DNA of 64,000 nucleotides, taken from positions 1 through 64,000 of the forward strand of contig JBHLSH010000008.1 of the NCBI GenBank assembly GCA_048881705.1, read 5' to 3'. The translations under genes were made by a program, and so were the position numbers. The stretch is from Candidatus Heimdallarchaeota archaeon (GTDB taxonomy: Archaea; Asgardarchaeota; Heimdallarchaeia; Hodarchaeales; Hodarchaeaceae). The notes below the pieces were generated by a model, which saw only the letters and a program-made list of their open reading frames with translations, searched no databases and was not told the DNA's origin. Positions 22,374 to 38,855 of the stretch are shown here, piece after piece. Every line of letters begins with the position of its first letter. Positions within the stretch are counted from its first letter, which is position 1.

Positions 22374-23327
22374 TTATATCAATAAATTTCCGTTCTTTAT
22401 TATAGGGTCTCCATCAAGGGATATGGTTGGGTTTCTAGTCGATGAATCAATATGTGTGGTACTCTGGATAGTTCCCCCGAAATGAGTATTTCCCCCGAAT
22501 CCGATGTGTCCTGATCCTGCAACTCTTTCATCTTCTATCAAATCTCCGATATAGGTAGCTTTCGCGTTTGTCCCACACCCTACTTCACAAACCCGAAATG
22601 AGTTTTCATCACCTGCAGAGAGAATCTTACGAAATTGCTCTGCCTGCTCGGAGTTTCCTAAGATATTTCCGATGCCATCGGTAACCTCTACGGTTATTGG
22701 GGGATCTATCAACCCTATTGATTGGATACTTCCATTAATTATCCATTTACCTTCTGCACAACCTTCTTGCAGTGGTATTGCGACCACACCTGAAGGAAGA
22801 GAGGTAAGAATCCCATTATCTCTACAAAGACCATCAAAATACATTGCTTTCATCCCCTTCAGAGAAAAAACCATATCTGTACCAGCAGAACTCTTTATTT
22901 CTACTTCTTTTGCCTCGGAAAACCTTTTTGCGACTTCCTTGGTGAGCTTAGACAGCTTGTCATAATCAAGATCGAAACAGCGTTGGATCATGCTTATGTC
23001 AGCTCTGCTCATCGAAAGGATTCGCGCACCCTCATCCATTGCTTTTACACGGGAGGAATGGGGAAAAAGCTTGGAGTTACAAATAACAATTAGATTGGAA
23101 TGATTCATGAATTGCTGCAGGGCATCTGGGAGCCGTTTCTCTACTAAGAGGTCAGTGTGAGGTATAACCAGGATTGTCTTGCCTCCTAAACTTTCGGCTG
23201 CTTTTGCAACTGATAGCGGGATCTTCTCATCCTGTGAAAGATCAGAAATCACTAGTACTGCCTCATCTGGTTGAAGATTCGCACATTGGATCAGGTTTGA
23301 CCTAAATATATCTTCGATTGATTTCAT
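22374..23327 (-). CDS. M29 aminopeptidase / NicX-like metalloenzyme
   Basis: EVEIKSSAGTDM, LPSG, CEVGCGTN, EDERVAGSGHIGFGGN and HID motifs. The start is placed at the ATG at 23327. Confidence 0.8.
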   Translation of the reverse strand: MKSIEDIFRSNLIQCANLQPDEAVLVISDLSQDEKIPLSVAKAAESLGGKTILVIPHTDLLVEKRLPDALQQFMNHSNLIVICNSKLFPHSSRVKAMDEGARILSMSRADISMIQRCFDLDYDKLSKLTKEVAKRFSEAKEVEIKSSAGTDMVFSLKGMKAMYFDGLCRDNGILTSLPSGVVAIPLQEGCAEGKWIINGSIQSIGLIDPPITVEVTDGIGNILGNSEQAEQFRKILSAGDENSFRVCEVGCGTNAKATYIGDLIEDERVAGSGHIGFGGNTHFGGTIQSTTHIDSSTRNPTISLDGDPIIKNGNLLI

Positions 23328-23343
23328 TTTTCTATCACCCAAA

Positions 23344-24780
23344 CTAAATAGGTACGATAAGAGAATCGATAAATTCTCCGAGATCATCAAGTTGTTCAAG
23401 GCGATTAACCTTCTCCCAGATCCTGTCAATTGACGGTGGTTCTAGGAATCCTTGTGTTAAATCCTTGATTTTAATCTTCAAGTCCTCATCCGACAATGGC
23501 GTCGCCGGGTCGCCTTTGGGGGACAAAACTGTGGATTCAACAGATCTACCATCCCGTAATCTGACTTTTACAGTTGATGGCCACGGCCCTTGTTGAAGAT
23601 TTCTTGTCATAAAGATCTTCTCAAACTCCTCATCCAGTTCGATTTTAGTACGTTTGAGTAAATTAATAAATTTGGGATTTTGAACTTTTTCATGCCATTT
23701 GATGGGAAGATCGTGTTTGCCATCGACCAAAACCGAGGCTACCTGGTATGGGTGGCTAAAAATGGCGTTTACATGGGAATGAAAGGTAAAAGTGGCCCGT
23801 CTGGCTGAGTCAGAATTTAATCGGATTATGACCTCCTGTATTTCATCCGGATTGACTTGTTCTATTTGAACCAGGTTTAATGCCGCTTCAATAGAAGCAT
23901 GAAGAAATTTACATGCAGGCCAGGGTTTGAAATATCCTTCCTCTATTTTGAATCCTTCAGGGGTTCCTAAATTATCCAGAAACGCATTCCAATTAACGTT
24001 ACCAACAATTGATCTTCCAACGGCTGATTTCCCTTCGAGAATGTCTCTAGAACCCAAAATGCCGTTTTTTGCCAAGAATGCCGATTGAACTGCTCTTCTT
24101 GATTCCTGTCCACATACTATGTCTTTTTCGTGTCCCCCACTAATTGTATATTGAGCACTTACGATTTGTGCCGAGGCAGCTAAACCCATAGCTCCAGCTA
24201 TCTGTTCTTTGGTAAGGCCAAGAAGTTTACCAGCAGGAATGACGCCTGCAAGTGGAGAAAGAACAACGAAGAAAGGACTTCGTTTGGTAACCGTCAGTTC
24301 CGCAGATCGAAACAGAACATATGCCAATCGAATATAGGCTTCGTACCCAAGAGCCACCGCAGTCAGTAATTCTTTTCCGTTGGCCTTAACATTTTCAGCA
24401 ACTGCCAGAGCTGTAGGAACCACACGATCATTGATATGTCCCCCCATGTAATGTCCATCGCTAGCATCCAGAAAATTCGAGAGTACACTATTTGCAAAAG
24501 CAGCATCTTCGCAACTGGTCTTAAAACCAGTACCAAGGACCGTCGCTTCTTGATGACCAGCCTTTGTTCGAATATATGCTAAAAGATTTTTTATAAGAGA
24601 ATGCTGAGTTCCATAGCCTGCTAATGCAATTCCTGCAAAATCGAAAATAACTTCTTTGGTTCTCTTGATGACTGATAATGGTAAGTCTTCAAAATCAGTG
24701 TCAATCACGAATTCCGCAAATTTTTCAGCAACAAAACTGCTAGATTTTTCAGGTTCCGCAAGAACCATTATTTTCAACAC
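23344..24780 (-). CDS. MmgE/PrpD family protein
   Basis: AAFANS..LDASDGH, VVPTALAVAE, GKELLTAVALGYE, KPWPACKFLHA and PKGDPATPLS motifs. Confidence 0.92.
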   Translation of the reverse strand: MLKIMVLAEPEKSSSFVAEKFAEFVIDTDFEDLPLSVIKRTKEVIFDFAGIALAGYGTQHSLIKNLLAYIRTKAGHQEATVLGTGFKTSCEDAAFANSVLSNFLDASDGHYMGGHINDRVVPTALAVAENVKANGKELLTAVALGYEAYIRLAYVLFRSAELTVTKRSPFFVVLSPLAGVIPAGKLLGLTKEQIAGAMGLAASAQIVSAQYTISGGHEKDIVCGQESRRAVQSAFLAKNGILGSRDILEGKSAVGRSIVGNVNWNAFLDNLGTPEGFKIEEGYFKPWPACKFLHASIEAALNLVQIEQVNPDEIQEVIIRLNSDSARRATFTFHSHVNAIFSHPYQVASVLVDGKHDLPIKWHEKVQNPKFINLLKRTKIELDEEFEKIFMTRNLQQGPWPSTVKVRLRDGRSVESTVLSPKGDPATPLSDEDLKIKIKDLTQGFLEPPSIDRIWEKVNRLEQLDDLGEFIDSLIVPI

Positions 24781-24794
24781 CTACCGAGCTTGAT

Positions 24795-25808
24795 TTAGTC
24801 ATAGACGATTCGAGGATCTAACCACCCATAGATGATGTCGACGATTAGGTTGATAAATGCAAAGATCAGAGCGTACCAGAGAATCACAGCCTGAATGACA
24901 GGATAGTCCCTTGATTGGATTGAATCTATCATATATTGCCCTAAGCCATTATACTCAAACACTTTCTCAACGATGATGGAACCACCTAACATGGCACCAA
25001 AAGCGACGCCAGCTACGGTAATTACGGGTATCATGGCATTCTTTAGAGAGTGATAAATGACGACCCTAGATCTAGATGCACCTTTTGCTCTGGCCGTTCT
25101 TATGTAATCACTGTTCAAGACCTCCAGCATGGAAGAACGGGTCTGTCGCGCAAGGACAGCCATCAGAAAGGCTGAAAGAGTGACTGCGGGCATTATAATG
25201 TGTTGGATGGAATTTGAAACTTCATCAAAGAATTCTGAAACTGTTGAGCCCGGAGGATAGAATAATCCTGGAATGAGAGAAAGAATACGATCGTAGTCGC
25301 CGGTACCAACAACGGGAAGAATATCGAACACAACTCCAAATATCCACATCATCATTAGGCCTAGCCAAAAAGCTGGCGCAGAAACTCCAACCATTGCTGC
25401 AATCATGGCTACATTGTCAGTTTTGGAATATGGTTTTACACTAGATATCGTACCTGCTAATCCTCCAATGATTAGAGCAATAAGAGTGGCTGAACTGGCC
25501 AACACTACTGTGTTCGTAAATCGTGGCATTATTTCTTCTAGAACCGGTTGGCCAGTTCGAATTGAAGACCCGAAGTCACCTTTCAAAATGTTAATCATGA
25601 AAACCAGGTATTGTTCGAGAAAAGGCTTGTTTAAACCCCATCGCTCCCGAAGAATTTCAACCTGTTCAAACGGCGCGTCCTCAGGAACGAGTAAGAGAGC
25701 AGGATCACCAGGAATCATGCGAATCAACATAAAAACTACGAAAGAGACAACCAAAAGGACTGGAATGACTAGAAAGATTCTTCTAATTAAGAAAGAGGTA
25801 AAAGACAA
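24795..25808 (-). CDS. dppB: Peptide/nickel ABC transporter permease
   Basis: PGDPA, GDFGSSI, RSSMLEVLNSDYIRTARAKG and RDYPVIQ motifs. TTG start preceded by GGTGA. Confidence 0.95.
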   Translation of the reverse strand: MSFTSFLIRRIFLVIPVLLVVSFVVFMLIRMIPGDPALLLVPEDAPFEQVEILRERWGLNKPFLEQYLVFMINILKGDFGSSIRTGQPVLEEIMPRFTNTVVLASSATLIALIIGGLAGTISSVKPYSKTDNVAMIAAMVGVSAPAFWLGLMMMWIFGVVFDILPVVGTGDYDRILSLIPGLFYPPGSTVSEFFDEVSNSIQHIIMPAVTLSAFLMAVLARQTRSSMLEVLNSDYIRTARAKGASRSRVVIYHSLKNAMIPVITVAGVAFGAMLGGSIIVEKVFEYNGLGQYMIDSIQSRDYPVIQAVILWYALIFAFINLIVDIIYGWLDPRIVYD

Positions 25809-25827
25809 TGTTAAATCACCATGTTTT

Positions 25828-26745
25828 TTAATCAGCCACCATTCGAGGATCAAGAGCGTCTCTAAGACCGTCTCCAACCAAATTGAAAGCTAAAACGGTC
25901 AATATGATAGCTAGCCCTGGGAACAATGATAGATGGATCTTTCCAGTCAAGAGGTAAAGGCGTCCTTGATTTAACATGACACCCCATTCCGGAGTGGGCG
26001 GTTGTGCTCCAAGGCCCAAAAAGCCTAATGCCGCAGCAGATAGGATTGCACTGGCAAAATTGAGAGTTGATTGAACAATAAGGGGTCCAGCAGCATTAGG
26101 TATGATGTGCCAAACCAGAATCCTCCAATCTCGGGCACCCACCATTCGTGCTGCTTCGATGTAGTCATTTTGTTTTATTGATATAACTTGACCGCGGGTT
26201 AATCTTGCATAAATAGGGATGAGCGCTATGCCAACGGCTACCATAGCATTTTGTAAAGTAGGTCCCAAAATTGCAATTATCATGAGTGCTAAGAGGAAAG
26301 CAGGGAAAGCCATCATCACGTCGATTAATCGCATAAAGATATGATCTATCCACCTGCCATAATAGCCACATACTGCGCCAATTATTGTCCCGACAACCAA
26401 CGCGATCGAAACAGAGACCAATCCTATTGTTATTGAAATCCGACATCCAAGCATAATCCTGCTAAGTAAGTCTCTTCCAAGATCGTCAAGGCCCAAAGGA
26501 TGTTGCGGAGACGGGGCTTCACCTATTCGATCCAAACGTTCCGACGTTGGGAGGTGTCCATAGGGATCATAAGGTACCAACAGCGGATTTCCCCATGGAT
26601 CCACAGCGAAAATTGCGATTAGAAGAATTATCAGAAGAATCAAGAGCCCAAAAACCGCACGCTTATTTTTCTTAAACTTATACAAAGTTTGGGGAAGCCT
26701 AGAAACTTTTGTGGTTCTATCCATTACCTCTGCTGATGTTCCCAT
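25828..26745 (-). CDS. dppC: Peptide/nickel ABC transporter permease
   Basis: HPLGLDDLGRDLLSR, YIEAARMVGA, QPPTPEWG and GDGLRDALDP motifs. Confidence 0.95.
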   Translation of the reverse strand: MGTSAEVMDRTTKVSRLPQTLYKFKKNKRAVFGLLILLIILLIAIFAVDPWGNPLLVPYDPYGHLPTSERLDRIGEAPSPQHPLGLDDLGRDLLSRIMLGCRISITIGLVSVSIALVVGTIIGAVCGYYGRWIDHIFMRLIDVMMAFPAFLLALMIIAILGPTLQNAMVAVGIALIPIYARLTRGQVISIKQNDYIEAARMVGARDWRILVWHIIPNAAGPLIVQSTLNFASAILSAAALGFLGLGAQPPTPEWGVMLNQGRLYLLTGKIHLSLFPGLAIILTVLAFNLVGDGLRDALDPRMVAD

Positions 26746-26804
26746 TTTCACGGACCTCATAGGTTTAACACACTGAATCAACCATAGAGTGTAATATAAT
26801 GGAA

Positions 26805-27779
26805 TTAGGTTTGATCTAATGCCCAACAGGCGGTGTAATGTTCATTTCCACGCTCTAGGAAGGGAGGGTCTTCTTCGCGGCACTTCGGAAGAGTTAGCCA
26901 GCATCGGGGGTGAAACCTACATCCTGAAGGAGGGTTTGCAGGGCTAGGGACGTCTCCTTGGAGAATTATTCTTTCTCTTTTGGATTGAAGAGTTGGTTCT
27001 AGAATTGCTGACATAAGTGCCTTAGTGTAAGGATGAGCTGGATTTTGGAAAATCTCGTCTGTTGGGCCATTTTCGACAATTTTTCCTACATACATAACGG
27101 CAGTACGATCGGACATGTATTCAATAATTGATAAATCGTGAGATATGAATAAATAGGAAAGATTAAGATCTTTTAAGAGATCCTTAAATAAATTAAGGAC
27201 CTGAGACTGGACAGATACATCTAGGGCTGACGTGGGTTCATCTAAAACTATTAAACTGGGATTTAATGCCAGAGCGCGTGCCACGCAGATCCGCTGACGC
27301 TGGCCTCCAGAAAATTCGTGAGGATGTCTATCCAGGTGCTCCTCCTTGAGACCCACCTTCTCTAGAAGCTTTAGTACCCTATCACTAATCTCTTTTCTTG
27401 GATGAACCTTATTAATGATAAGTGGTTCCCCTACTATTCTCTTTATGGTCATTCGGGGGTTTAATGATGAGAATGGATCCTGAAATACCATCATCATTTG
27501 CCTTCTCTGCTTTCGTAGTTTTCTTTTGTCCATCTGAGTGAGTGTTTTACCGTCAAATCTAATCTCCCCTGATGTAGGTTTCTCTAGCATCAAAACTACT
27601 CTTCCAACAGTGGTTTTTCCGCACCCTGACTCGCCCACTAGGCCCAAAACCTCCCCCTTCCGAATCTGAAAGCTGATATCGTCAACCGCCCTTACCCAGC
27701 CCACTGTCCTTCTTAATACTCCTGCTCGGATTGGAAAGTACATTTTGAGATTTTTAACATCTAATAAAATCTCTTGCGT
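26805..27779 (-). CDS. dppF: Oligopeptide ABC transporter ATP-binding protein
   Basis: GESGCGKTT, FSGGQRQR, LDEPTSALD, HPYT and PSGCRFHPRC. The frame extends 12 codons upstream of the ATG at 27743 (xQEILLDVKNLK), suggesting a non-canonical start at 27779. Confidence 0.93.
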   Translation of the reverse strand, partial: TQEILLDVKNLKMYFPIRAGVLRRTVGWVRAVDDISFQIRKGEVLGLVGESGCGKTTVGRVVLMLEKPTSGEIRFDGKTLTQMDKRKLRKQRRQMMMVFQDPFSSLNPRMTIKRIVGEPLIINKVHPRKEISDRVLKLLEKVGLKEEHLDRHPHEFSGGQRQRICVARALALNPSLIVLDEPTSALDVSVQSQVLNLFKDLLKDLNLSYLFISHDLSIIEYMSDRTAVMYVGKIVENGPTDEIFQNPAHPYTKALMSAILEPTLQSKRERIILQGDVPSPANPPSGCRFHPRCWLTLPKCREEDPPFLERGNEHYTACWALDQT

Positions 27780-27839
27780 GGTGAATCACCTTTTTCTGCT
27801 TCATGTAACCTGTAGATTGATCTTGCTAATGGAAATTTG

Positions 27840-28886
27840 TCATGCATATAAATTACAAGCTACAAAGTGTTCTTTACCGACTTCAACAAGTGTAGGTTTG
27901 TTTTTTAAACAATCGTTACTTACTTGATCACAACGGGGATGAAATCTGCAGCCAGAAGGTGGGTTTATTAAATCAGGAACAGTTCCCTTGATAGTGTTCA
28001 ATCTCCTTCCCCTGCTTTCCCCCAGACGAGGAATGCATTTCATTAAACCTGAGGTATACGGATGTGTTGGATTGCTAAATAGGGAACGAATATCTGTGTA
28101 TTCCACAATGTTGCCCGCGTACATGACCGCGACCTGTTCGCACATCTCCGCAATTAATCCTAAGTGGTGAGAAATCAGCAATAGCGAAACGCCGAATTCT
28201 TTTCGTATTTTTTTGATCAGAGCCAAAATCTGTGCCTGAATGGTGACATCAAGGGCTGTCGTGGGTTCATCCGCGATAAGAAGTTGTGGATGGCAAGCTA
28301 AGGCCATTGCAATCATAATCCGTTGTCGCATCCCACCGCTTAATTGGTGTGGATACCCAGATGCGACCTTCTCGGGTTCGGGTATCCCTGTTAGACCAAT
28401 GAGTTCAAGAGCACGTTCAGTTACCTTTTGTTCAAACGTTCTATGATCCAATTTGGATACGTCGTCTCCATTATCTGATTGTGGGGGGTCAAAGTCATAA
28501 GTATCAGGATGAAGCAAGATAGCCTCAACAATTTGATTGAGAATAGGAATGACAGGATTTAAAGAAGTCATAGGTTCTTGAAAGACCATAGAAATGCTTT
28601 TACCTCTGATTTCCCTCTGCATGTATCTCTCACTTTTTTGTAGGAGGTTTTCACCATTGAACCAAATTTCACCTTGAACAATGCGTCCCGGTGGTTGTGG
28701 AATTAACCGCATTATAGATAATGCTGTCACGCTCTTTCCGCAACCTGTTTCTCCTACAAGACCTAGCGATCCATTTTTCCCTTTTATCTCAAGGTTAACG
28801 GCGTCTATGGCTTTCACGTTGCCTGAGTATGTAGAAAAGTGAGTAGAAAGGTTTTTTACTCGCAATAAAGGGTCGATTTCAGTCAT
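27840..28886 (-). CDS. dppD: Oligopeptide ABC transporter ATP-binding protein
   Basis: GETGCGKS, LSGGMRQR, ADEPTTALD and PSGCRFHPRC motifs. Confidence 0.95.
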   Translation of the reverse strand: MTEIDPLLRVKNLSTHFSTYSGNVKAIDAVNLEIKGKNGSLGLVGETGCGKSVTALSIMRLIPQPPGRIVQGEIWFNGENLLQKSERYMQREIRGKSISMVFQEPMTSLNPVIPILNQIVEAILLHPDTYDFDPPQSDNGDDVSKLDHRTFEQKVTERALELIGLTGIPEPEKVASGYPHQLSGGMRQRIMIAMALACHPQLLIADEPTTALDVTIQAQILALIKKIRKEFGVSLLLISHHLGLIAEMCEQVAVMYAGNIVEYTDIRSLFSNPTHPYTSGLMKCIPRLGESRGRRLNTIKGTVPDLINPPSGCRFHPRCDQVSNDCLKNKPTLVEVGKEHFVACNLYA

Positions 28887-29352
28887 TGATATTTACCAAC
28901 GGTTTCAGACTTTGAACCATCACAAAAAGCCCGATCTAGGTTTGAACATTCAAACATTGTTTCTACATAAGGTTGACGTTCTTTATTTGTCATGAGAGGG
29001 GTTTCCAACTGAAATTTACATGAAGCAATCAAAATTCGATTCGTTATTACAATTCTGGTTTACATATCTTTGTGTAATTATAGTTAACAGAAGTAATCTC
29101 CGAAATTCGCTTTTGTGTACATGTCGATTCTTCTCATACTGCTGGGGCCACTATAATTGGACTATTTGAGAACTATGTCCTCTAGCCATGTATTTGTGAA
29201 CAATTTGTACCTCTATGGTTCATCCGAGCTACATTGAATCCATCCAACCCGTTAAGAAGCCAAAATAGAAAAAACAGTTGCCCCCCTGAATTGGGGACAA
29301 CGAGCAATCAAGTTGGAGAATTCACCAGGGGCCAATTGTGAAACTTATGGTT

Positions 29353-31080
29353 TTAGTCCTTTTTTTTCGATTTCTGGCCGAAGAAAGCTTTTTTGCCCAT
29401 GATGATGGCTAGTGCAATCATCACCAGCGGGAACTCAAAGCTCGGAGTGGTTTGTCCAGGTACTGGGTATCCTGCTTCGTCTAAGAGTTGTTTAGCTTTC
29501 TCAACGTCTTGTTCGTAGCTCACATTACCCTGTTGAACTCCGTAGGCGTTGGGCGCCATCATGGTATCAATCATGGGGGATCCATAACCTGAATAAAGCG
29601 TTTCAACCATTTTTGTTTGATTGACGGCGTAGTTCAGTGCTTGTCTCACTTTTCTGTTTTTAAAGATCTCAAAATCGTGATTCAGACCAATATGCATCAT
29701 ACGAACTGAAGCTGCTTTGATCATGTAGACTTCGGGATCAGCCATTAATGTGTCAACAGCTGTTGTCGGGGCCTGATGGATGTAGTCTACATCGCCAGCT
29801 AATAATGCTGTAACCCGCGATGCGGAATCGGTGATTTTCTTCATGATAACAGTCTGAAAAGCAGGTTTCTTACCCCAATAGTTTTCATTTCGTTGCAGTG
29901 TTATGTGATCGCCTTTCACCCATTCTACAAATTTGTATGGACCTGTACCAGAGGGGTCAGTCTGAAAATCTTCAGCAGGTACAGTCTCATTAGCCTTATG
30001 CAGAGCATCGCATCGTGTTTTTGAAACGATTTCTGATGGCTGATAGTTGAAGAAGGGCATAAGGGCAGCGAATCCGATTGTTTCAACCTTCACCTGATAC
30101 TTGGAGAGAACCGTAATATTCTTTATTGGGCCTGAAGGAGGACCAAATGAGGTTGACGCCAAAGCGCCGCTGTTAGGAGAAGCTAAGCGATCCCAGAGGG
30201 TATATTTGACATCCTCCGCGGTAAGTTCACTGCCATCATGGAAATATACCCCTTGACGTATATTGATGGTCCAGTTCTCTGCGTTGCTGTCGGTCGACCA
30301 GGATTCTGCTAGGACAGGTACTACATCGCCCGTTTCCTGATCTAGTTTCACTAGCGTTTCACAAACAAGACGTACGATTCCAAGATTTGACATTCCAGAA
30401 GTATGTTGCGGATCAAACTTGACTGGCTCTGTTCCCAGGGATAACGTAAGAGTATTGTTTGACGTTTCTGAATAGGCATCAAATATATCAACCGATTCGT
30501 CGTGGTAGGTGGTGATACCTTTTACTGATTTTGCTGCATGGAGATTAGGTTCGATTGCAAGAAATATCCAGGGAGCATCGGTCATAACGATGTCATTCAT
30601 TTCTTCATAGAGTTGCATTAAGCTGACTTCGTTGGCTTCCTTACGGGATTGAACGAAAAGGTCATCAAAGTGTGTATTATTGTAGAAGAGAGGCTCTAAT
30701 CCTCGCTGGGAGATGAAATTCTTTAACGCCCCATCGGCATTCATCCAAGGGTTTCCAAAACCGACAAACCATGCCTGATAATCTCCTACTAATTTTGTTC
30801 GATTCGATTCCCTCTGAGCCGCCGCAAAAGAAGCCCAATCATGGGATTCTATCTTCATATTGATGTCCACTTCGGCCAGGAATGACTGAACGGCTTCTAT
30901 TATCTGTTGGTCCATAGCGTAGCGTCCTGCGCCGTAGAATAAAGTAAATTCGAATCTATAGTCCGCCGCTTTGACTGGCACTGTAGAAGCGTAGGGTACC
31001 AACAGCAAGAGCGCTAGGCCCCCTATTTTTAGGTACGAAAATCCTATTTTCCTTCTATTAAACGGCAATACCGTCTTCAC
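29353..31080 (-). CDS. dppA: Family-5 ABC substrate-binding protein, circularly permuted, with C-terminal membrane anchor
   Basis: All family-5 motifs are present (EPVKFDP, ETLV, PVLAESW, FHDG..TAEDV, GTGPYKF, VRQALNYA, EKAKQLLDEAG), but the normally C-terminal third comes first in the chain. Confidence 0.9.
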   Translation of the reverse strand: MKTVLPFNRRKIGFSYLKIGGLALLLLVPYASTVPVKAADYRFEFTLFYGAGRYAMDQQIIEAVQSFLAEVDINMKIESHDWASFAAAQRESNRTKLVGDYQAWFVGFGNPWMNADGALKNFISQRGLEPLFYNNTHFDDLFVQSRKEANEVSLMQLYEEMNDIVMTDAPWIFLAIEPNLHAAKSVKGITTYHDESVDIFDAYSETSNNTLTLSLGTEPVKFDPQHTSGMSNLGIVRLVCETLVKLDQETGDVVPVLAESWSTDSNAENWTINIRQGVYFHDGSELTAEDVKYTLWDRLASPNSGALASTSFGPPSGPIKNITVLSKYQVKVETIGFAALMPFFNYQPSEIVSKTRCDALHKANETVPAEDFQTDPSGTGPYKFVEWVKGDHITLQRNENYWGKKPAFQTVIMKKITDSASRVTALLAGDVDYIHQAPTTAVDTLMADPEVYMIKAASVRMMHIGLNHDFEIFKNRKVRQALNYAVNQTKMVETLYSGYGSPMIDTMMAPNAYGVQQGNVSYEQDVEKAKQLLDEAGYPVPGQTTPSFEFPLVMIALAIIMGKKAFFGQKSKKKD

Positions 31081-31334: not shown

Positions 31335-32387
31335 TTGATCACTCGTGAAGAATACCTCAAGATACCGCTTAAAGAGCGATTCATAAAGCTGGATAAGGTG
31401 GAAGAAGAACGTGCGGAAGAATTGCATAGAAAAATAATAACTATTGATTTACACAGCCACATTTTATGGGGAAATTATTTTATTCTGCCCCGTATTATGA
31501 ATTCTGGCGTTTCAGGCTTTGTTGAAGCAGTTCCGGGAGTTTTTGGAGATTTTGATGTAGCAATGGCCTATCTAGGTCAGTTTCTTTTCCGCGTGAACAA
31601 ACATAAGGAATTTACGCCCGTATATCAAGCTCAGGACTTTAGGAAGGCCAAGAAGGATAAAAAGATTGGAGTAATGTTCCAACTAGAACCCCAGCCGTTT
31701 GGAAGGAATCTAGACAATGTTGATATAGCCTATGGTCATGGTATCCGGATGGCCCTTCTGACGTTCAATAGCCGCAATTATGTAGGCGATGGTTGTGGTG
31801 AAAGGACGGATGAAGGACTAAGTTACTTCGGTTTAGACCTAGTGGAGCGAATGAACAATGTTGGGATGATGATTGACTTATCCCATGTGGGTGTCAAGAC
31901 GACGTTAGATACGATTGAAAATTCCAAAGATCCTGTAATGTGTAACCATGTAGGGGCACGATCTTTGTATCCGCAATGCAAGCGAATTAAAACAGACGAG
32001 GAACTCAAAGCTCTTGCTGAAAAAGACGGAGTAGCTGGTGTTTCCGCCATTCCCAATCAGTTAAGCGGCGATAAGGAGCAAGGGATAGAGAATCTCCTTG
32101 ATCACGTCGATTACATGGTTAACCTTATAGGTATTAATCACGTAGCAATAGGATTAGATAACGTTTTTGGTGATCAAGTCGAATCCCATCGCAGATCAGC
32201 CCAAACGGTTTTCAAAATTTCGTACATTGGCCAGGAACTAAATGCACCCTTCATGTGGGGAATAGAGAGTCCTGAGGAGTGGCCTAATATCACACGAGGA
32301 CTTGTCCAGAGAGGTTATTCGGACGAAGAAATCGAAAAGATACTAGGTGAGAATTCCCTAAAGCTCATGGAGAGGGTCATTGGATAA
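31335..32387 (+). CDS. Membrane dipeptidase (peptidase M19)-like protein, copy 1 (type A)
   Basis: DLHSH, FQLEP, GDGCGER, IDLSHVG, NHVG and GLDN motifs. Confidence 0.9.
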   Translation: MITREEYLKIPLKERFIKLDKVEEERAEELHRKIITIDLHSHILWGNYFILPRIMNSGVSGFVEAVPGVFGDFDVAMAYLGQFLFRVNKHKEFTPVYQAQDFRKAKKDKKIGVMFQLEPQPFGRNLDNVDIAYGHGIRMALLTFNSRNYVGDGCGERTDEGLSYFGLDLVERMNNVGMMIDLSHVGVKTTLDTIENSKDPVMCNHVGARSLYPQCKRIKTDEELKALAEKDGVAGVSAIPNQLSGDKEQGIENLLDHVDYMVNLIGINHVAIGLDNVFGDQVESHRRSAQTVFKISYIGQELNAPFMWGIESPEEWPNITRGLVQRGYSDEEIEKILGENSLKLMERVIG

Positions 32388-32484
32388 AAAGATGAGGTAC
32401 CGTATCCGATATTGGCTTTGACTGTAGAAAACCTGAAAAAAAGCTGAAAATTGACCAACCGGAATCTGGAAGAAGGTTTAAAAC

Positions 32485-33546
32485 ATGATTTCACGAGAAG
32501 AATACCTGAAGCTTCCTCTTGAAGAACGTTACATCAAATTGGATGCTTCTGAGAAGGAAAGAGCCGAGGAGCTCTTTGAAAAATCGATCACAGTGGACTT
32601 ACATACCCATATCTTTGGCAGTGTATTTTTTGAATATGAATACGAACAGGTACGGCAAATGGGAGTTGATGGACTGTTTGAGGCGGTACCTTGCCTCTCA
32701 GAGGACTTTTTAGAATCCATGAAAATCCTTGGAAGGTACAAAAGCATCACAATGAAGGAACCTGGACTGATTCCAGCCTACACCGCTGCTGATGTGGAAA
32801 AAGCGAAAAAAGAAGGAAAACAGGCAGTTTTATTCCAGCTAGAGCCCCATACATTCAAAAGGAACCCAGATTTAGTTGAAGTGGCCTATGGATTGGGCAT
32901 TAGAATGGCGCTTCTCACCTTCAACTCAAGGAATTACCAGGGAGACGGATGTTCGGAAAGAACAAACGGGGGGCTTAGCTATCTCGGCATGGACCTGATA
33001 GAGAGAATGAATAAAATAGGAATGATGGTAGATCTCTCTCATGTGGGGATTCAAACAACATTGGATGCAATAGAGCATTCAAAAGATCCAGTTCTCTTAA
33101 ATCATACAGGTGCCCGGGTTTTAAATCCACCAGTTCTTCGACTAAAACCTGATGAGCCCTTGAAAGCGGTGGCAGAAAAAGGTGGGCTTATAGGTATCTC
33201 TGCCATTCCTAATCAACTTTCCAGTCAGAAAAAGCAAGGTATTGATGATTTACTCAACCACCTAGACTACTGCATCAAATTGGTTGGAATTAATCATGTG
33301 GCAATAGGCCTTGATAATGTCTTTAGAGACCAAGTAGCCGGACACAAGAAACAACAAGCGAAAAACATGGTAAACTTCGCTCGATCAGGAATTGTCCTTG
33401 CGGCCGATTACATGTGGGGGATAGAATCTCCAGGTGAATGGCCCAATATTGTTCGTGGATTGGTAAAGAGAGGCTACTCAGACTCCGAAATCAAGAAAAT
33501 CATTGGTGAAAACGCCCTAAGGGTCATGAGAAAAATCATAGGGTGA
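32485..33546 (+). CDS. Peptidase M19-like protein, copy 2 (type B)
   Basis: DLHTH, FQLEP, GDGCSER, DLSHVG, NHTG and GLDN motifs. Confidence 0.9.
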   Translation: MISREEYLKLPLEERYIKLDASEKERAEELFEKSITVDLHTHIFGSVFFEYEYEQVRQMGVDGLFEAVPCLSEDFLESMKILGRYKSITMKEPGLIPAYTAADVEKAKKEGKQAVLFQLEPHTFKRNPDLVEVAYGLGIRMALLTFNSRNYQGDGCSERTNGGLSYLGMDLIERMNKIGMMVDLSHVGIQTTLDAIEHSKDPVLLNHTGARVLNPPVLRLKPDEPLKAVAEKGGLIGISAIPNQLSSQKKQGIDDLLNHLDYCIKLVGINHVAIGLDNVFRDQVAGHKKQQAKNMVNFARSGIVLAADYMWGIESPGEWPNIVRGLVKRGYSDSEIKKIIGENALRVMRKIIG

Positions 33547-33590
33547 TAAAGGGCAGTAATGAATACTTGGGAAGGTTAAGAGGCGTTGAG

Positions 33591-34643
33591 ATGATTCCAC
33601 TCCAAGAATATCTGAATCGTCCCCTGAAAGAGCGCTTTATCAAATTGGATAAAGCTGAGGAAGAACGTGCAGAGGAACTCTATGAACAGTTTATTACGAT
33701 AGAGCTTCACAGTCACATCCTTCCCGATGAGGATTTTATTGTTCCTCGGATTAAAAATTCAGGGGTAAATGGCTTTTTCGAAGCCATTGCTGCCATAAAC
33801 GAGAATTTTCACGATTCAATGGTTACTCTTGGATATCTGCTCAAGCGTGTCATCAAACATCCAGATTTTATACCTGCATTCGGAGCTGGAGACTTCAGAA
33901 AAGCAAAGAATGAGGGGAAACAGGCTATTATGTTCCAACTGGAACCTCAAACTTTCGGAACAGATCTGGGTCGGGTAGACATCGCCTATGGTTTGGGAAT
34001 AAGGATGGCCCTTCTTTCATTCAATACCCGTACGTACGCGGGTGATGGTTGCGGAGAGAGAACCAACGAAGGGCTAAGTTATTTTGGATTAGACCTAGTG
34101 GAACGAATGAACAAAGTTGGGATGATGATAGATCTTTCTCATGTAGGGATTCAAACCACCTTGGACGTTGTCGAGGCATCCAGACATCCTGTTTTGGCTA
34201 ATCATGTGGGAGCACGTGAATTATATAAACAAAGTAAACGGTTGAAGACAGATGAGGAACTTAAAGCGATTGCAGAGAAGGGGGGTTTGGTTGGAGTTTC
34301 TGCAATACCCAATCAGCTAAGCGGAAAAGAAGAACAAAGTATCCATGACTTACTGGATCACGTGGACTACATTGCTGACTTGATTGGGGTAGAGCATGTA
34401 GGAATTGGACTTGACAATGTCTTTGAAGATCAAGTGGAATATCACCGCAGGGCAGCAAAATCGATTTTCAAATTGGAACATACGGGACAGGAACTTAATG
34501 CTCCTTATATGTGGGGGATTGAAAGCCCTGAGGAGTGGCCTAACATCGTTCGTGGACTGGTTCAGAGAGGATATTCCGATTCGGAAATCGAGAGGATTTC
34601 GGGACTTAATTCACTAAAACTTATCGAAAGGATTATTGGCTAA
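33591..34643 (+). CDS. Peptidase M19-like protein, copy 3 (type A)
   Basis: ELHSH, FQLEP, DLSHVG, NHVG and GLDN motifs. The ATG at 33591 aligns with the paralog starts. Confidence 0.9.
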   Translation: MIPLQEYLNRPLKERFIKLDKAEEERAEELYEQFITIELHSHILPDEDFIVPRIKNSGVNGFFEAIAAINENFHDSMVTLGYLLKRVIKHPDFIPAFGAGDFRKAKNEGKQAIMFQLEPQTFGTDLGRVDIAYGLGIRMALLSFNTRTYAGDGCGERTNEGLSYFGLDLVERMNKVGMMIDLSHVGIQTTLDVVEASRHPVLANHVGARELYKQSKRLKTDEELKAIAEKGGLVGVSAIPNQLSGKEEQSIHDLLDHVDYIADLIGVEHVGIGLDNVFEDQVEYHRRAAKSIFKLEHTGQELNAPYMWGIESPEEWPNIVRGLVQRGYSDSEIERISGLNSLKLIERIIG

Positions 34644-34739
34644 TAAAAAGTATTATTTTGATTAGCAGGGAATCTTGCCATAAGGAATTGAAAGTTAAAA
34701 TTTGATAGGAATATAAAAACAAACTAGGAGGTAAAAAAC

Positions 34740-35810
34740 GTGTTATCTTACGAAGAATATCTGAAGCTTCCTCTTGAAGAACGTTACATCAAACTGGATG
34801 CTTCTGAGAAAGATAGAGCTGAGAAGCTCTTTGAAGAATCGATCGCCGTGGACTTGCACACCCATATCTTTGGAAGCGTTCACTTCGAGTGGGATAACCA
34901 CCTATACGAACGGGTTCGCAATTCTGGCATTAATGTTTGCTTCGAAGCAGTACCTTGTCTATCAGAGCGTTTTTCAGAATCGGTGGAGCAATTGGGCAGG
35001 TATCTAGCAATTACAGTGAAAGAACCAGGTTTAACTCCAGCGTACAATTTGAACGATGTGAAAAAAGCAAAAAAAGAAGGAAAACAGGCGGTAATGTTTC
35101 AAATGGAACCACAATCATTTAGGAGGAACTTGGATCTAGTAGATGTAGCGTACGGTCTGGGATTTCGGATGGCACTCTTGACATTTAATACACGAAATTA
35201 TATCGGAGATGGATGTTCTGAAAGAACAAATTCCGGGTTGAGCTATATGGGATTGGAACTTGTTGACAGACTTAACAGGGCGGGAATGATGATAACATTA
35301 TCCCACTGTGGTACTCAGACTGCTCTGGATGCAATTGAACATTCAAAAGATCCTTGTCTCTTCAACCATACAGGTGCACGAGCATTAAATCCAAAAGTTG
35401 GGCGCTTACGCACAGATGAGGAGTTGAAAGCTATTGCAGAAAAGGGAGGAGTTGTTGGAATATCTGCTATTCCAAACCAGCTTTCATTGGAGAAGAAACA
35501 GGGCATCGAGGATCATTTGAACCATATAGACTATATTGTAAACCTCATCGGAATAAATCACGTTGGTATTGGCTTGGATAATACTTTCCATGATCAGGTT
35601 GGATTTCATCGGAAGTTGGCTGCTAGTAAAGAAATCAATCTTGAACGGACTGGAATCGTACTTGCCGCTGATTACATGTGGGGTTTGGAAAGCCCTGAAG
35701 AATGGCCGAATATTATTCGTGGTTTGGTCAAGAGAGGGTACTCTGACACCGAGATTGAAAAAATAATCGGTGGAAATGCCCTTAGGATCATTGAGAAGGT
35801 CATTGGATAG
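34740..35810 (+). CDS. Peptidase M19-like protein, copy 4 (type B)
   Basis: DLHTH, FQMEP, TLSHCG, NHTG and GLDN motifs. Confidence 0.9.
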   Translation: MLSYEEYLKLPLEERYIKLDASEKDRAEKLFEESIAVDLHTHIFGSVHFEWDNHLYERVRNSGINVCFEAVPCLSERFSESVEQLGRYLAITVKEPGLTPAYNLNDVKKAKKEGKQAVMFQMEPQSFRRNLDLVDVAYGLGFRMALLTFNTRNYIGDGCSERTNSGLSYMGLELVDRLNRAGMMITLSHCGTQTALDAIEHSKDPCLFNHTGARALNPKVGRLRTDEELKAIAEKGGVVGISAIPNQLSLEKKQGIEDHLNHIDYIVNLIGINHVGIGLDNTFHDQVGFHRKLAASKEINLERTGIVLAADYMWGLESPEEWPNIIRGLVKRGYSDTEIEKIIGGNALRIIEKVIG

Positions 35811-35846
35811 AGAAAACGAGAAGCTTGTCTACAAGGAGAATTCAGG

Positions 35847-36899
35847 ATGATAACGCGTGATGAATATCTAAAAATTCCCCTAGAAGAACGATTTATAAAA
35901 CTGGACAAGGTACAAGAGGAACGAGTCGAACAAATCTACGAGAGGTACATATTTATTGAAATGCACTCACACATTCTCAATGATGAATACTTCATTGTTC
36001 CTCGAATAAAGAACTCCCGAATAAACGGGTTTGTCGAGGCGGTTGCGGCGATACACGAGGAGTTCAACACATCAATGGATAGACTCGGTTATTTTCTTAA
36101 TCGGGTTCTCCATCATCCTGAATTTACCCCTGCATTTCAGGTTAAGGATTTTAGAAAAGCCAGGGATGAAAATAAGCAAGCAGTGATGTTTCAGCTGGAA
36201 CCTCAAACCTTCGGAAAGGATTTAGAAAACGTGGACATTGCTTTTGGGCAGGGAATCAGGATGGCGCTTCTGGCTTTCAATACTAGAACATATGCCGGAG
36301 ACGGTTGTGGAGAAAGAACTAATGCCGGTTTGAGTTACTTTGGCCTGGATCTCGTTGAGAGAATGAACAAAGTTGGCATGCTGATAGATCTCTCTCATGT
36401 TGGTATTCAGACAACTTTGGATACCATTGAACATTCTAAGGATCCAGTTTTGTGCAATCATGTAGGCGCACGAGCTTTATATCAGCAGTGTAAGCGATTA
36501 AAGACAGATGAAGAACTAAAAGCCTTGGCTGAAAAGGGAGGCCTAGCCGGCGTTTCAGCCATTCCTAATCAGCTTAGTGGAGAGCCCGAACAAGGTATTG
36601 ATACTCTATTGGATCATTTGGAATATATGGTTGATCTGATTGGGATAAACCATGTTGGTATCGGTTTAGATAATACATTTGGAGATCAAGTTGCAGGACA
36701 TAGGAAATTCGACAAAACACTGTTTAAGCTTGATTATGTGGGTCAGGAGCTCAATGCACCTTTCATGCATGGCATTGAAAGCCCAGAGGAATGGCCCAAT
36801 ATAACGCGGGGACTAGTATTCAGAGGATATTCGGATCAAGAGATAGAGAAGGTGGTCGGAAAAAACGCTCTCAACCTCATGGGAAGAGTAATTGGATAG
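35847..36899 (+). CDS. Peptidase M19-like protein, copy 5 (type A)
   Basis: EMHSH, FQLEP, DLSHVG, NHVG and GLDN motifs. Confidence 0.9.
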   Translation: MITRDEYLKIPLEERFIKLDKVQEERVEQIYERYIFIEMHSHILNDEYFIVPRIKNSRINGFVEAVAAIHEEFNTSMDRLGYFLNRVLHHPEFTPAFQVKDFRKARDENKQAVMFQLEPQTFGKDLENVDIAFGQGIRMALLAFNTRTYAGDGCGERTNAGLSYFGLDLVERMNKVGMLIDLSHVGIQTTLDTIEHSKDPVLCNHVGARALYQQCKRLKTDEELKALAEKGGLAGVSAIPNQLSGEPEQGIDTLLDHLEYMVDLIGINHVGIGLDNTFGDQVAGHRKFDKTLFKLDYVGQELNAPFMHGIESPEEWPNITRGLVFRGYSDQEIEKVVGKNALNLMGRVIG

Positions 36900-36952
36900 T
36901 CAAAATAGCACGGATATATCCATACCTGGCTAGTTTGAGGAATAAAAATACA

Positions 36953-38176
36953 ATGGAACGTGATCTTGTACTCATTCTGATTGCGGGTTTTGCCTACAGT
37001 ACCATGCTTGGGCTCCTAAATCCAACAGTTCCCTTGTCCGCAAGTGCGCTGGGGGCCTCAACGGCTTTATTGGGAATCCTCCTTAGTTCTAGAGCAATTG
37101 TACAAACCGGGTTACGCGTCCCTCTTGGGCAGGGTGCTGATAGATACGGTTGGAGACGAATATTTTTGGTCGCATTCGTTCTTGGTGTCGCTTCAGGGGG
37201 TACTTTCTTCTTTGGTGTTGTGAGAGAGGACGTCTTTCTGTTTTTTCCGGCTTTAATGCTATGGGGAATGACAAATGCCTCATTCAGAACCACTGAACAA
37301 GGTTACATATCAGGCATTGGAGGAATGGGGGTAAATCGGACCCAGCTGATCGGGCGATATCTTGCCATTACTGGAGTCGGCCAGCTAGTAGGTCCTCCGC
37401 TCGCAGGTTTTCTGATAGAGGGTTGGGATTTTGGAGTAGTTTATTTGATGTTCACGTTATTGGCTCTTATAGGCCTTTTATCAATGTTTTTTCTTTCCGA
37501 GGGAGATTTAATAGCAGATGAGAACAAAGAAATTCAGGAAGGAGTGAATGAGGATTTAGGACTCTTCAGGAGCTATTCGCGTGCCTTTCAATTAATCCGA
37601 TCTGATAGAACCCTAGCAATTGCCACTTCTTGCGGTTTCTTTATGACCTTAAGCTTCGGGGTAGGGCTTTCTTTCCATCCAATCTTTTTGCGGGATTTGG
37701 GACTTGCATCTTTCGAGATTGGGCTTCTCCTGGCCGCTAGAGACATCAGTTCAATTATTAGTCGCCTATTTGCAGGTAACTTCTCATTGAGACTAGGGAA
37801 CCTGTTTACGGTCTTTTTAGGGATTTTTTGCGTGGGTATTGGAATAACGATGATTCCCTCGCTAAAAGATCCTCTACTGGCAATAATCCCTTTATGTGCA
37901 ACAGGATTTGGATTTGGTATCTTTTGGCCAGCCGTCGTCTCCCTAATAGCTGCTAACACGGAAAAAGCTAAACGAGGTTTGGCTATCGGCGTTCTAGGGA
38001 CAGGTTTTACAACAGGTTTTTCAGTGGGGTCGATTATCTTTGGGATTATTGCTGATATATTTTCAAATCTAGATTATGCATTCACGTATGGCGGAATATG
38101 TACATTAATAGGATTTACGTTAATTATAGTCTATTTTTATTTCAAAAGAGATCTATATTCCCAAATTAATCTTTAG
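36953..38176 (+). CDS. MFS transporter
   Basis: 12 TM helices, motif A GQGADRYGWRR and GQLVGPPLAG. The start is placed at the ATG at 36953. Confidence 0.92.
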   Translation: MERDLVLILIAGFAYSTMLGLLNPTVPLSASALGASTALLGILLSSRAIVQTGLRVPLGQGADRYGWRRIFLVAFVLGVASGGTFFFGVVREDVFLFFPALMLWGMTNASFRTTEQGYISGIGGMGVNRTQLIGRYLAITGVGQLVGPPLAGFLIEGWDFGVVYLMFTLLALIGLLSMFFLSEGDLIADENKEIQEGVNEDLGLFRSYSRAFQLIRSDRTLAIATSCGFFMTLSFGVGLSFHPIFLRDLGLASFEIGLLLAARDISSIISRLFAGNFSLRLGNLFTVFLGIFCVGIGITMIPSLKDPLLAIIPLCATGFGFGIFWPAVVSLIAANTEKAKRGLAIGVLGTGFTTGFSVGSIIFGIIADIFSNLDYAFTYGGICTLIGFTLIIVYFYFKRDLYSQINL

Positions 38177-38198: not shown

Positions 38199-38855
38199 AT
38201 GTCCAAATTATCGTATTCAAATCCCCCGAGAGAGGGGGCCCCCTGGCGTGTTGGAATTTTGATTTTTGATGAAGTTGAAGTTTTGGACTTTTGCGGACCA
38301 TTTGAGGTCTTTGCTACAACTAGGTTTTTAGACGTGAATGGTGAAAGAACGGATAAGATTGCCTTTAGTGTTAAATTGATTTCACAAACTGATAGTGTGG
38401 TAGAATGTCGTGGAGGGCTTAAAGTAATACCTGATTTCGGCTTTGCAAATTCGCCAGATTTCGATATCTTGGTGGTTCCAGGAGGTTGGGGAACCCGTAA
38501 AGAGGTTGATAATCCAATCTTGGTTAAATGGTTAAAATTTCAGTCTGAGAAGGCTCAATTAATGACATCTGTATGTACAGGAAGCTTTCTTCTGGCAAAA
38601 ACGGGGATATTAGATGGCTTTGAAGTTACCACACACTGGGCGAGTCTTGAAAGACTACAAAGGGCTTTTCCTAAGGTGAAAACTATCGCAAATAAGCGGT
38701 TTGTTATCACAGGAAATGGAAAAATTGTTTCTTCTGCTGGAATTTCATCTGGCATTGATATGGCGCTGTACCTAGTCAGTAAACTGGTTGGACAGGAGAT
38801 TGCGTTAAATACTGCCAATAATATGGAATATCGTGGGAATTTCCTGGATTTATGA
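38199..38855 (+). CDS. DJ-1/PfpI family protein (isonitrile-hydratase-like subgroup)
   Basis: LDFCGPFEVF, VPGGWG, nucleophile elbow SVCTG, TTHW and SSAGISSGIDMAL motifs. Confidence 0.92.
   Translation: MSKLSYSNPPREGAPWRVGILIFDEVEVLDFCGPFEVFATTRFLDVNGERTDKIAFSVKLISQTDSVVECRGGLKVIPDFGFANSPDFDILVVPGGWGTRKEVDNPILVKWLKFQSEKAQLMTSVCTGSFLLAKTGILDGFEVTTHWASLERLQRAFPKVKTIANKRFVITGNGKIVSSAGISSGIDMALYLVSKLVGQEIALNTANNMEYRGNFLDL

Follow-up and report, generated by a model that had tools for sequence, protein, structure and literature searches.

The five-gene array and its products

The window analysed here, i.e. the whole 64,000-nt stretch of DNA from Candidatus Heimdallarchaeota archaeon, contains at positions 31335-36899 an array of five consecutive open reading frames (ORFs) on the plus strand, each of them intact. 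Three copies (c1, c3 and c5) belong to one type, termed A, and two (c2 and c4) to a second type, termed B. A preliminary description of this DNA had listed five tandem paralogs of the M19 dipeptidase family with intact ORFs in the order A-B-A-B-A, and this was confirmed by the ORF calls and by matches to the Pfam profile PF01244 (Peptidase_M19). The genes are the following.

31335-32387, plus strand: c1, type A, subclade A-alpha, sister of c5; M19-like amidohydrolase of 350 aa, TTG start with GGAGG 8 nt upstream
32485-33546, plus strand: c2, type B, B-I lineage; 353 aa, QMGV(D/E)G signature in common with the B-I copies of other species
33591-34643, plus strand: c3, type A, A-beta; 350 aa from the ATG at 33591, the last ~15 codons and the downstream spacer derived from copy X (see below)
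34740-35810, plus strand: c4, type B, B-II lineage; 356 aa, GTG start, GGAGGT upstream
35847-36899, plus strand: c5, type A, A-alpha, sister of c1; 350 aa

All five copies are preceded by a Shine-Dalgarno-like motif; a longer alternative start of c3 (GTG at 33543) was considered unlikely. The spacers from A to B genes measure 97 and 96 nt, and those from B to A genes 44 and 36 nt. Pairwise protein identities were 69-73% between A copies, 72% between the B copies and 57-60% between A and B, with the divergence among the five copies concentrated in residues ~30-104 and ~285-299. The sequence motifs previously assigned to the two types are present in the copies, except that VPRIxNS occurs only in c3 and c5 and reads LPRIMNS in c1. 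As strict alternation is one of 10 possible orders of three A and two B genes, the order alone is statistically unremarkable.

The matches of all five copies to PF01244 scored 216-229 bits against a cut-off of 26 bits (E 9e-64 to 1e-67) and started at about profile position 36-41, while no NCBIfam model matched A or B. An AlphaFold2 model of c1 was of high quality (predicted local distance difference test 94.9, predicted template modelling (TM) score 0.94) and showed a (beta/alpha)8 amidohydrolase barrel. The top 20 matches of this model in a Foldseek search of the PDB were all M19-like (TM score 0.74-0.82), led by 2i5g and followed by Sco3058, DPEP1, GliJ and PvdM. A signal peptide or hydrophobic N-terminus was absent from the proteins; as the N-terminus is hydrophilic, they are probably located in the cytoplasm. 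A helical segment of ~35 residues at the N-terminus (EEYLKLPLEERFIKLD...ERAEEL; 31335-31440 in c1 and the equivalent positions of the other copies) shows strong conservation across both types, in bacteria and Asgard archaea alike. The Pfam M19 match does not include this segment, 2i5g lacks it, and it coincides with a gene conversion tract of c2 and c4 described below.

The binuclear site of human renal dipeptidase (hrDP) is formed by His20, Asp22, the bridging Glu125, His198 and His219 (PMC9305348). When the equivalent positions were located by alignment ranges, four of these five ligands proved to be kept in the array copies (H40, E118, H184 and H205), so that the full set is not present; the position of Asp22 is occupied by His (H42), so that all five copies and almost every relative have an HxH motif. 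H40, E118, H184, H205 and D275 were invariant in 44 sequences. HxH is the usual motif of the amidohydrolase superfamily, and metal binding is therefore still expected despite the exchange of Asp22 for His. We infer that the five proteins represent an HxH-type branch of M19 (renal-dipeptidase-like) amidohydrolases with a predicted binuclear metal site.

Age of the two types and reshaping of the array

The occurrence of the A/B subfamily was surveyed in 301 Asgard genomes with 70 genera sampled, using a cut-off of E <= 1e-90. Among these genomes the subfamily was restricted to the genus of the window, where it was present in the window genome and in six of 20 other species. Close homologues bear NCBI labels such as Thorarchaeota, Promethearchaeota, Hodarchaeales, Hermodarchaeota and Candidatus Hodarchaeum mangrovi, and all of them fall into this one GTDB genus, which identifies the window genome as that of a Hodarchaeales-type Asgard archaeon. 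A careful maximum-likelihood tree of 33 copies from the genus and two outgroups set c1, c3 and c5 apart from c2 and c4, in agreement with the grouping proposed from the motifs, with a support of 100/100 for clade A. In an extended tree, to which copies from Fraserbacteria, Anaerolineae, Thermotogae, Acetothermia and Bathyarchaeia were added, clade A (support 99) consisted of the bacterial A copies and a monophyletic Asgard A group (98), and clade B (96) of the bacterial B copies and a monophyletic Asgard B group (96). Single Bathyarchaeia copies were placed outside both clades, and the deeper nodes within B lacked resolution in both trees. As each type comprises bacterial members and a monophyletic Asgard group, the A/B duplication is ancient, and the Asgard genus started with one A and one B gene. 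Judging from these trees, the A/B split predates the spread of the surrounding operon (see below) across several bacterial phyla and is not local to the genome of the window.

Within the genus the number of genes derived from this pair ranges from four to seven, and the Asgard arrays were the largest seen. Two B-to-A units are syntenic in six species, namely B-II followed by A-alpha (c4-c5 in the window) and B-I followed by A-beta (c2-c3), and this conserved synteny supports the duplication of a two-gene unit. The duplication of an A-B unit suggested in the preliminary description was thus upheld as far as the two-gene unit is concerned; the split into A and B itself is ancient, and c1 is unpaired. 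In the tree c1 and c5 were sisters (support 90/94), which makes c1 an additional copy within the A-alpha lineage that belongs to no pair. Other species have one to three further copies, sited between the permease gene and the PrpD-like gene of the operon.

The sister species G001, which shows 84-89% nucleotide identity across the locus, has six copies in the order A-B-A-X-B-A. Its copy X (L011:12171-13295) is located between the equivalents of c3 and c4 and is missing from the window. X represents a conserved A subclade of three species (G001, G009 and G015), in which HxH is replaced by HxL, an insertion of ~20 residues follows the motif and, in two of the species, GPD replaces GLD beside the catalytic Asp. 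The X-type copy may be a non-catalytic M19 paralog. The c3 gene of the window tracks c3 of G001 up to ~34570 (82-95% identity per 60-nt interval) and X of G001 from ~34600 onwards, the X-like stretch comprising the last ~15 codons of c3 and the entire 96-nt spacer downstream. This switch at the 3' end of c3 is the signature of an unequal crossover that would have deleted X. The possibility that c3 is a mosaic of c3 and X over its whole length was ruled out, as the switch is confined to the extreme 3' end. The recombination features of the array are the following.

34570-34600, plus strand: unequal-crossover junction; upstream similar to c3 of the sister species, downstream similar to X of the sister species and its 3' spacer
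32485-32630, plus strand: conversion tract, c2 side; first ~135-150 nt with the N-terminal helices and the HxH motif
34740-34885, plus strand: conversion tract, c4 side; same identity pattern, counterpart of the tract in c2

With an order of A-B-A-X-B-A in the sister species, the order in the window appears to be derived by the loss of X, and in this respect the preliminary description needed correction. On the gene order of the two species, the strict alternation is a historical footprint of the duplication of pair units, and no selected order.

An artefact, in which strain variants assembled together would have created the array or its copy number, is hardly credible. The genome is a metagenome-assembled genome (MAG) with 7.5% contamination, and c3 and X are most alike where their junction is located, so that a misjoin skipping X is conceivable. 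However, the copies differ from each other by 27-43% at the protein level, which is far beyond strain variation, and equivalent arrays were present in independent assemblies; on these two grounds the artefact was rejected. In addition, c3 and X of the sister species have no long exact repeat in common at the junction, and no X-like sequence was found elsewhere in the assembly of the window, the M19 pieces on contigs C47 and C26 being only 24-34% identical. These two pieces (C47:30817-31299 and C26:2-595) are distant M19 fragments at contig ends which cover complementary Pfam positions, 160-317 and 7-203, respectively; a single gene was probably divided between them by a break in the assembly. 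The genome also holds one canonical M19 gene on another contig (C48).

The preliminary description had further noted that c2 and c4 are identical at 49 of 50 nt (32506-32555 versus 34761-34810), which was exact, and had proposed patchy gene conversion. In the first 45 codons the two genes showed 84-91% nucleotide identity compared with 65-66% in the remainder, in the window and in G001 alike, while the same segment of the equivalent B-I/B-II pairs of four other species showed 54-60%, with 58-60% in three of these. Where c2 and c4 encode the same residue, the codons were identical at 30 of 38 sites (79%) in the first 45 codons compared with 92 of 216 (43%) outside; the corresponding values of A-type pairs in this region were 31-43%. 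Permutation of codon columns gave P=1e-4 for the 50-nt segment and P=0.0014 for an exact run of 33 nt. The conversion test thus pointed to a genuine, lineage-specific tract at the 5' ends of c2 and c4. The tract starts near the start codon, since the spacers upstream are unrelated. As the identity of the paralogs inside the tract is similar to that of the orthologs, the conversion would be about as old as the split of the two species or would have recurred since. A conserved nucleotide or regulatory element was ruled out as the cause of the 5' identity by the 54-60% identity elsewhere and by the unrelated upstream spacers.

The ratios of nonsynonymous to synonymous substitution rates against the orthologs of G001 were low for all copies (c1 0.050, c2 0.032, c3 0.085, c4 0.047 and c5 0.053), and orthologous subclades of the copies are kept across the species of the genus. 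Judged from its substitution pattern, every copy is under strong purifying selection, and is functional and individually maintained. These results bear on a dosage amplification, in which the array would provide more copies of the same enzyme and the sequence differences would be neutral drift. The catalytic residues present in all copies and the arrangement in one probable transcription unit are in line with such an amplification. Dosage arrays are, however, normally young and near-identical, whereas the copies in the window are old (57-73% identity), fall into orthologous subclades conserved across species, are each under strong purifying selection and carry clade-specific loop signatures conserved from bacteria to Asgard archaea. 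Considering this age and the conservation of each copy, pure dosage is quite improbable.

The importer operon and the roles of types A and B

The array diverges from a conserved operon on the minus strand (22374-31080), and is followed by two syntenic genes on the plus strand.

29353-31080, minus strand: SBP_bac_5 binding protein
27840-28886 and 26805-27743, minus strand: two ATPases
25828-26826, minus strand: OppC-like permease
24795-25877, minus strand: OppB-like permease
23344-24780, minus strand: MmgE/PrpD-like protein; nearest relatives IDS epimerase and cis-aconitate decarboxylase
22374-23429, minus strand: M29/NicX-like aminopeptidase-family protein, lacking a Pfam match
36791-38176, plus strand: major facilitator superfamily (MFS) transporter, downstream of the array and syntenic; the listed ORF shares 108 nt with the end of c5
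38199-38855, plus strand: DJ-1/PfpI-family protein, downstream and syntenic

The protein encoded at 22374-23429 is kept in every version of the operon. It gave a weak PDB match to NicX (2,5-dihydroxypyridine dioxygenase, E 3e-5), and its language-model neighbours were M29/NicX 'aminopeptidase family' clusters. The true start of the MFS gene is probably located ~150 nt further downstream, considering the overlap with c5 and the fact that the first ~50 residues align in another frame in the sister species. Residues 216-539 of the binding protein of the window align before residues 43-205 in bacterial operons (tblastn).

The operon and the genes downstream of the array are conserved in five sister species, and the operon core was also found in four bacterial phyla, in Bathyarchaeia and on ~40 metagenome contigs. 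The operon is a horizontally distributed one that encodes a peptide/opine-type ATP-binding cassette (ABC) importer. Its commonest layout is binding protein (SBP)-OppB-OppC-M29like-A-B-PrpD; variants contained A-A-B, B-A-B, B only, or A accompanied by a less closely related M19 gene in the opposite orientation. In the latter variant (L048, L050-L052, L054, L067 and L071) the distant M19 homologue (~40-45% identity) is located beside the binding-protein gene, opposite in strand to the A-type gene.

The deep signatures that distinguish A from B are grouped in residues 43-58 (directly after HxH, at beta-1), 90-96 and 287-306 (after D275, at beta-8). It is established for amidohydrolase barrels that the loops following beta-1 and beta-8 border the active site. 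As these signatures and most of the differences between the paralogs are located in loops flanking the metal site, different specificities are favoured: we consider it probable, with reservations, that the array arose by tandem expansion of an ancient, non-redundant A/B pair and that its paralogs have different substrate specificities. An ancient A/B pair in the importer operon would have been amplified as B-to-A units in one Hodarchaeales-type genus. The array would then have been reshaped by birth and death, with c1 as an extra A-alpha duplicate, X lost by unequal crossover and the 5' ends of c2 and c4 converted. The predicted cytoplasmic amidohydrolases would cleave imported dipeptide-like amides, each paralog accepting other substrates.

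Several points weigh against this interpretation. The nearest solved structure, 2i5g, is annotated merely as 'amidohydrolase'. Where the A/B residues would lie with respect to the pocket or an interface between subunits was derived from barrel topology alone. Of the five strictly A/B-discriminating sites (S41/T, L44/F, I54/V, H90/E and F93/L), two, H90/E and F93/L, fall in a segment whose location at the catalytic face is not evident. Finally, two distinct M19 paralogs have stayed side by side in many lineages, which fits a heteromer equally well.

In that case, the main alternative, A and B would be subunits of a hetero-oligomer, the array would supply interchangeable subunits, and their combinations would set the specificity. 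Adjacent A and B genes were found in the same operon in Fraserbacteria, Anaerolineae and Thermotogae as well as in the Asgard genus and on many metagenome contigs. The spacers from B to A are very short (36-44 nt in the window and ~9-52 nt in G012), and some A-containing operons hold the distant second M19 gene in the place of B. In the X subclade, three species have kept the exchange of H for L in the HxH motif, which would suit a non-catalytic partner. Human renal dipeptidase forms dimers, and PvdM provides a precedent for a non-hydrolytic M19 member (PMC9305348). On the other hand, complete operons with B only occurred at five loci (L061-L065), and two Acetothermia genomes (G041 and G042) contained a single B copy genome-wide, although these are MAGs whose assemblies may be incomplete. 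The A:B ratios also varied, from 3:2 in the window and 4:2 in G001 to 1:2 in Thermotogae and 2:1 in several contigs, and every metal ligand is kept in both types. The B-only operons and the single-copy genomes make an obligate A/B heteromer unlikely as a general rule; a facultative one is conceivable. The obligate hetero-oligomer considered in the preliminary description was consequently weakened, the two partners not always occurring together and both types keeping all catalytic residues.

Overall, we regard hetero-oligomers with interchangeable subunits as unlikely, and combinatorial A/B heterodimers in which the HxL copy of type X serves as a non-catalytic subunit in the sister species as more doubtful still. 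If A/B heterodimers were formed, the array would constitute a toolkit of interchangeable subunits which widens the substrate range of one uptake operon, and would give the amidohydrolase superfamily a natural example of specificity set by the mixing of paralogs. The expansion of a non-redundant pair with different specificities remains the explanation we favour.

Comparison with known systems

The array is genuine, but as an expansion of a gene family it is rather ordinary, and recombination has left clear marks on it. It leaves general principles unchanged, and the tandem expansion of a hydrolase beside its transporter is a familiar pattern. The analysis nevertheless defines an uncharacterised HxH-type branch of renal dipeptidases, with two non-redundant paralogs conserved together in one uptake-and-catabolism operon from bacteria to Asgard archaea. 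The Asgard expansion to 5-7 maintained copies supplies natural variants from which the determinants of specificity, or of the pairing of subunits, could be worked out, and the window together with the sister species is a clean before-and-after case of unequal crossover and gene conversion in an archaeal array. Literature searches turned up no account of the A/B pair, its operon or the Asgard array; papers on Asgard archaea mention M19 solely as an indicator of peptide use.

The closest known protein is 2i5g, a structural-genomics entry from Pseudomonas aeruginosa annotated as 'amidohydrolase', which was the best match in sequence (E 1.7e-35) and gave a Foldseek E value of 4e-28 with a TM score of 0.82. 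It belongs to the same M19-like TIM-barrel branch as the array copies, but it is only ~29% identical, and its N-terminus is ~25 residues shorter and lacks the conserved helical segment. No paper mentioning 2i5g was found in the literature searches.

DPEP1 (1itq), Sco3058 (3id7) and GliJ (5lwz) are of the same Pfam family and fold, and the equivalents of Glu125, His198, His219 and Asp288 in this group are E118, H184, H205 and D275 in the array copies. hrDP has been described as a dimeric binuclear zinc enzyme (PMC9305348). The canonical M19 dipeptidases differ from the array copies in sequence (~20-22% identity) and in having His20-x-Asp22 in place of HxH. Unlike them, the array copies are predicted to be cytoplasmic, lack a signal peptide or glycosylphosphatidylinositol signal, carry the N-terminal helical extension of 35 residues and have genes that form an A/B pair or array within the operon of an ABC importer.

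PvdM (3b40) is a member of the M19 family that has lost ligands and has a role as a partner instead of as an enzyme (PMC9305348). It resembles the present case in that an M19 fold is encoded beside uptake systems, which bears on the X subclade with HxL. PvdM, however, is a periplasmic protein in which four of the five zinc ligands are missing, whereas the copies in the window keep all ligands and X is absent from the window.

With other tandem arrays that evolve by birth and death the locus has in common the duplication of a unit, the deletion of a copy by unequal crossover and a short tract of conversion between paralogs that are not neighbours. It differs from them in that its paralogs are old and individually conserved, and in that the two-type unit is conserved across domains.

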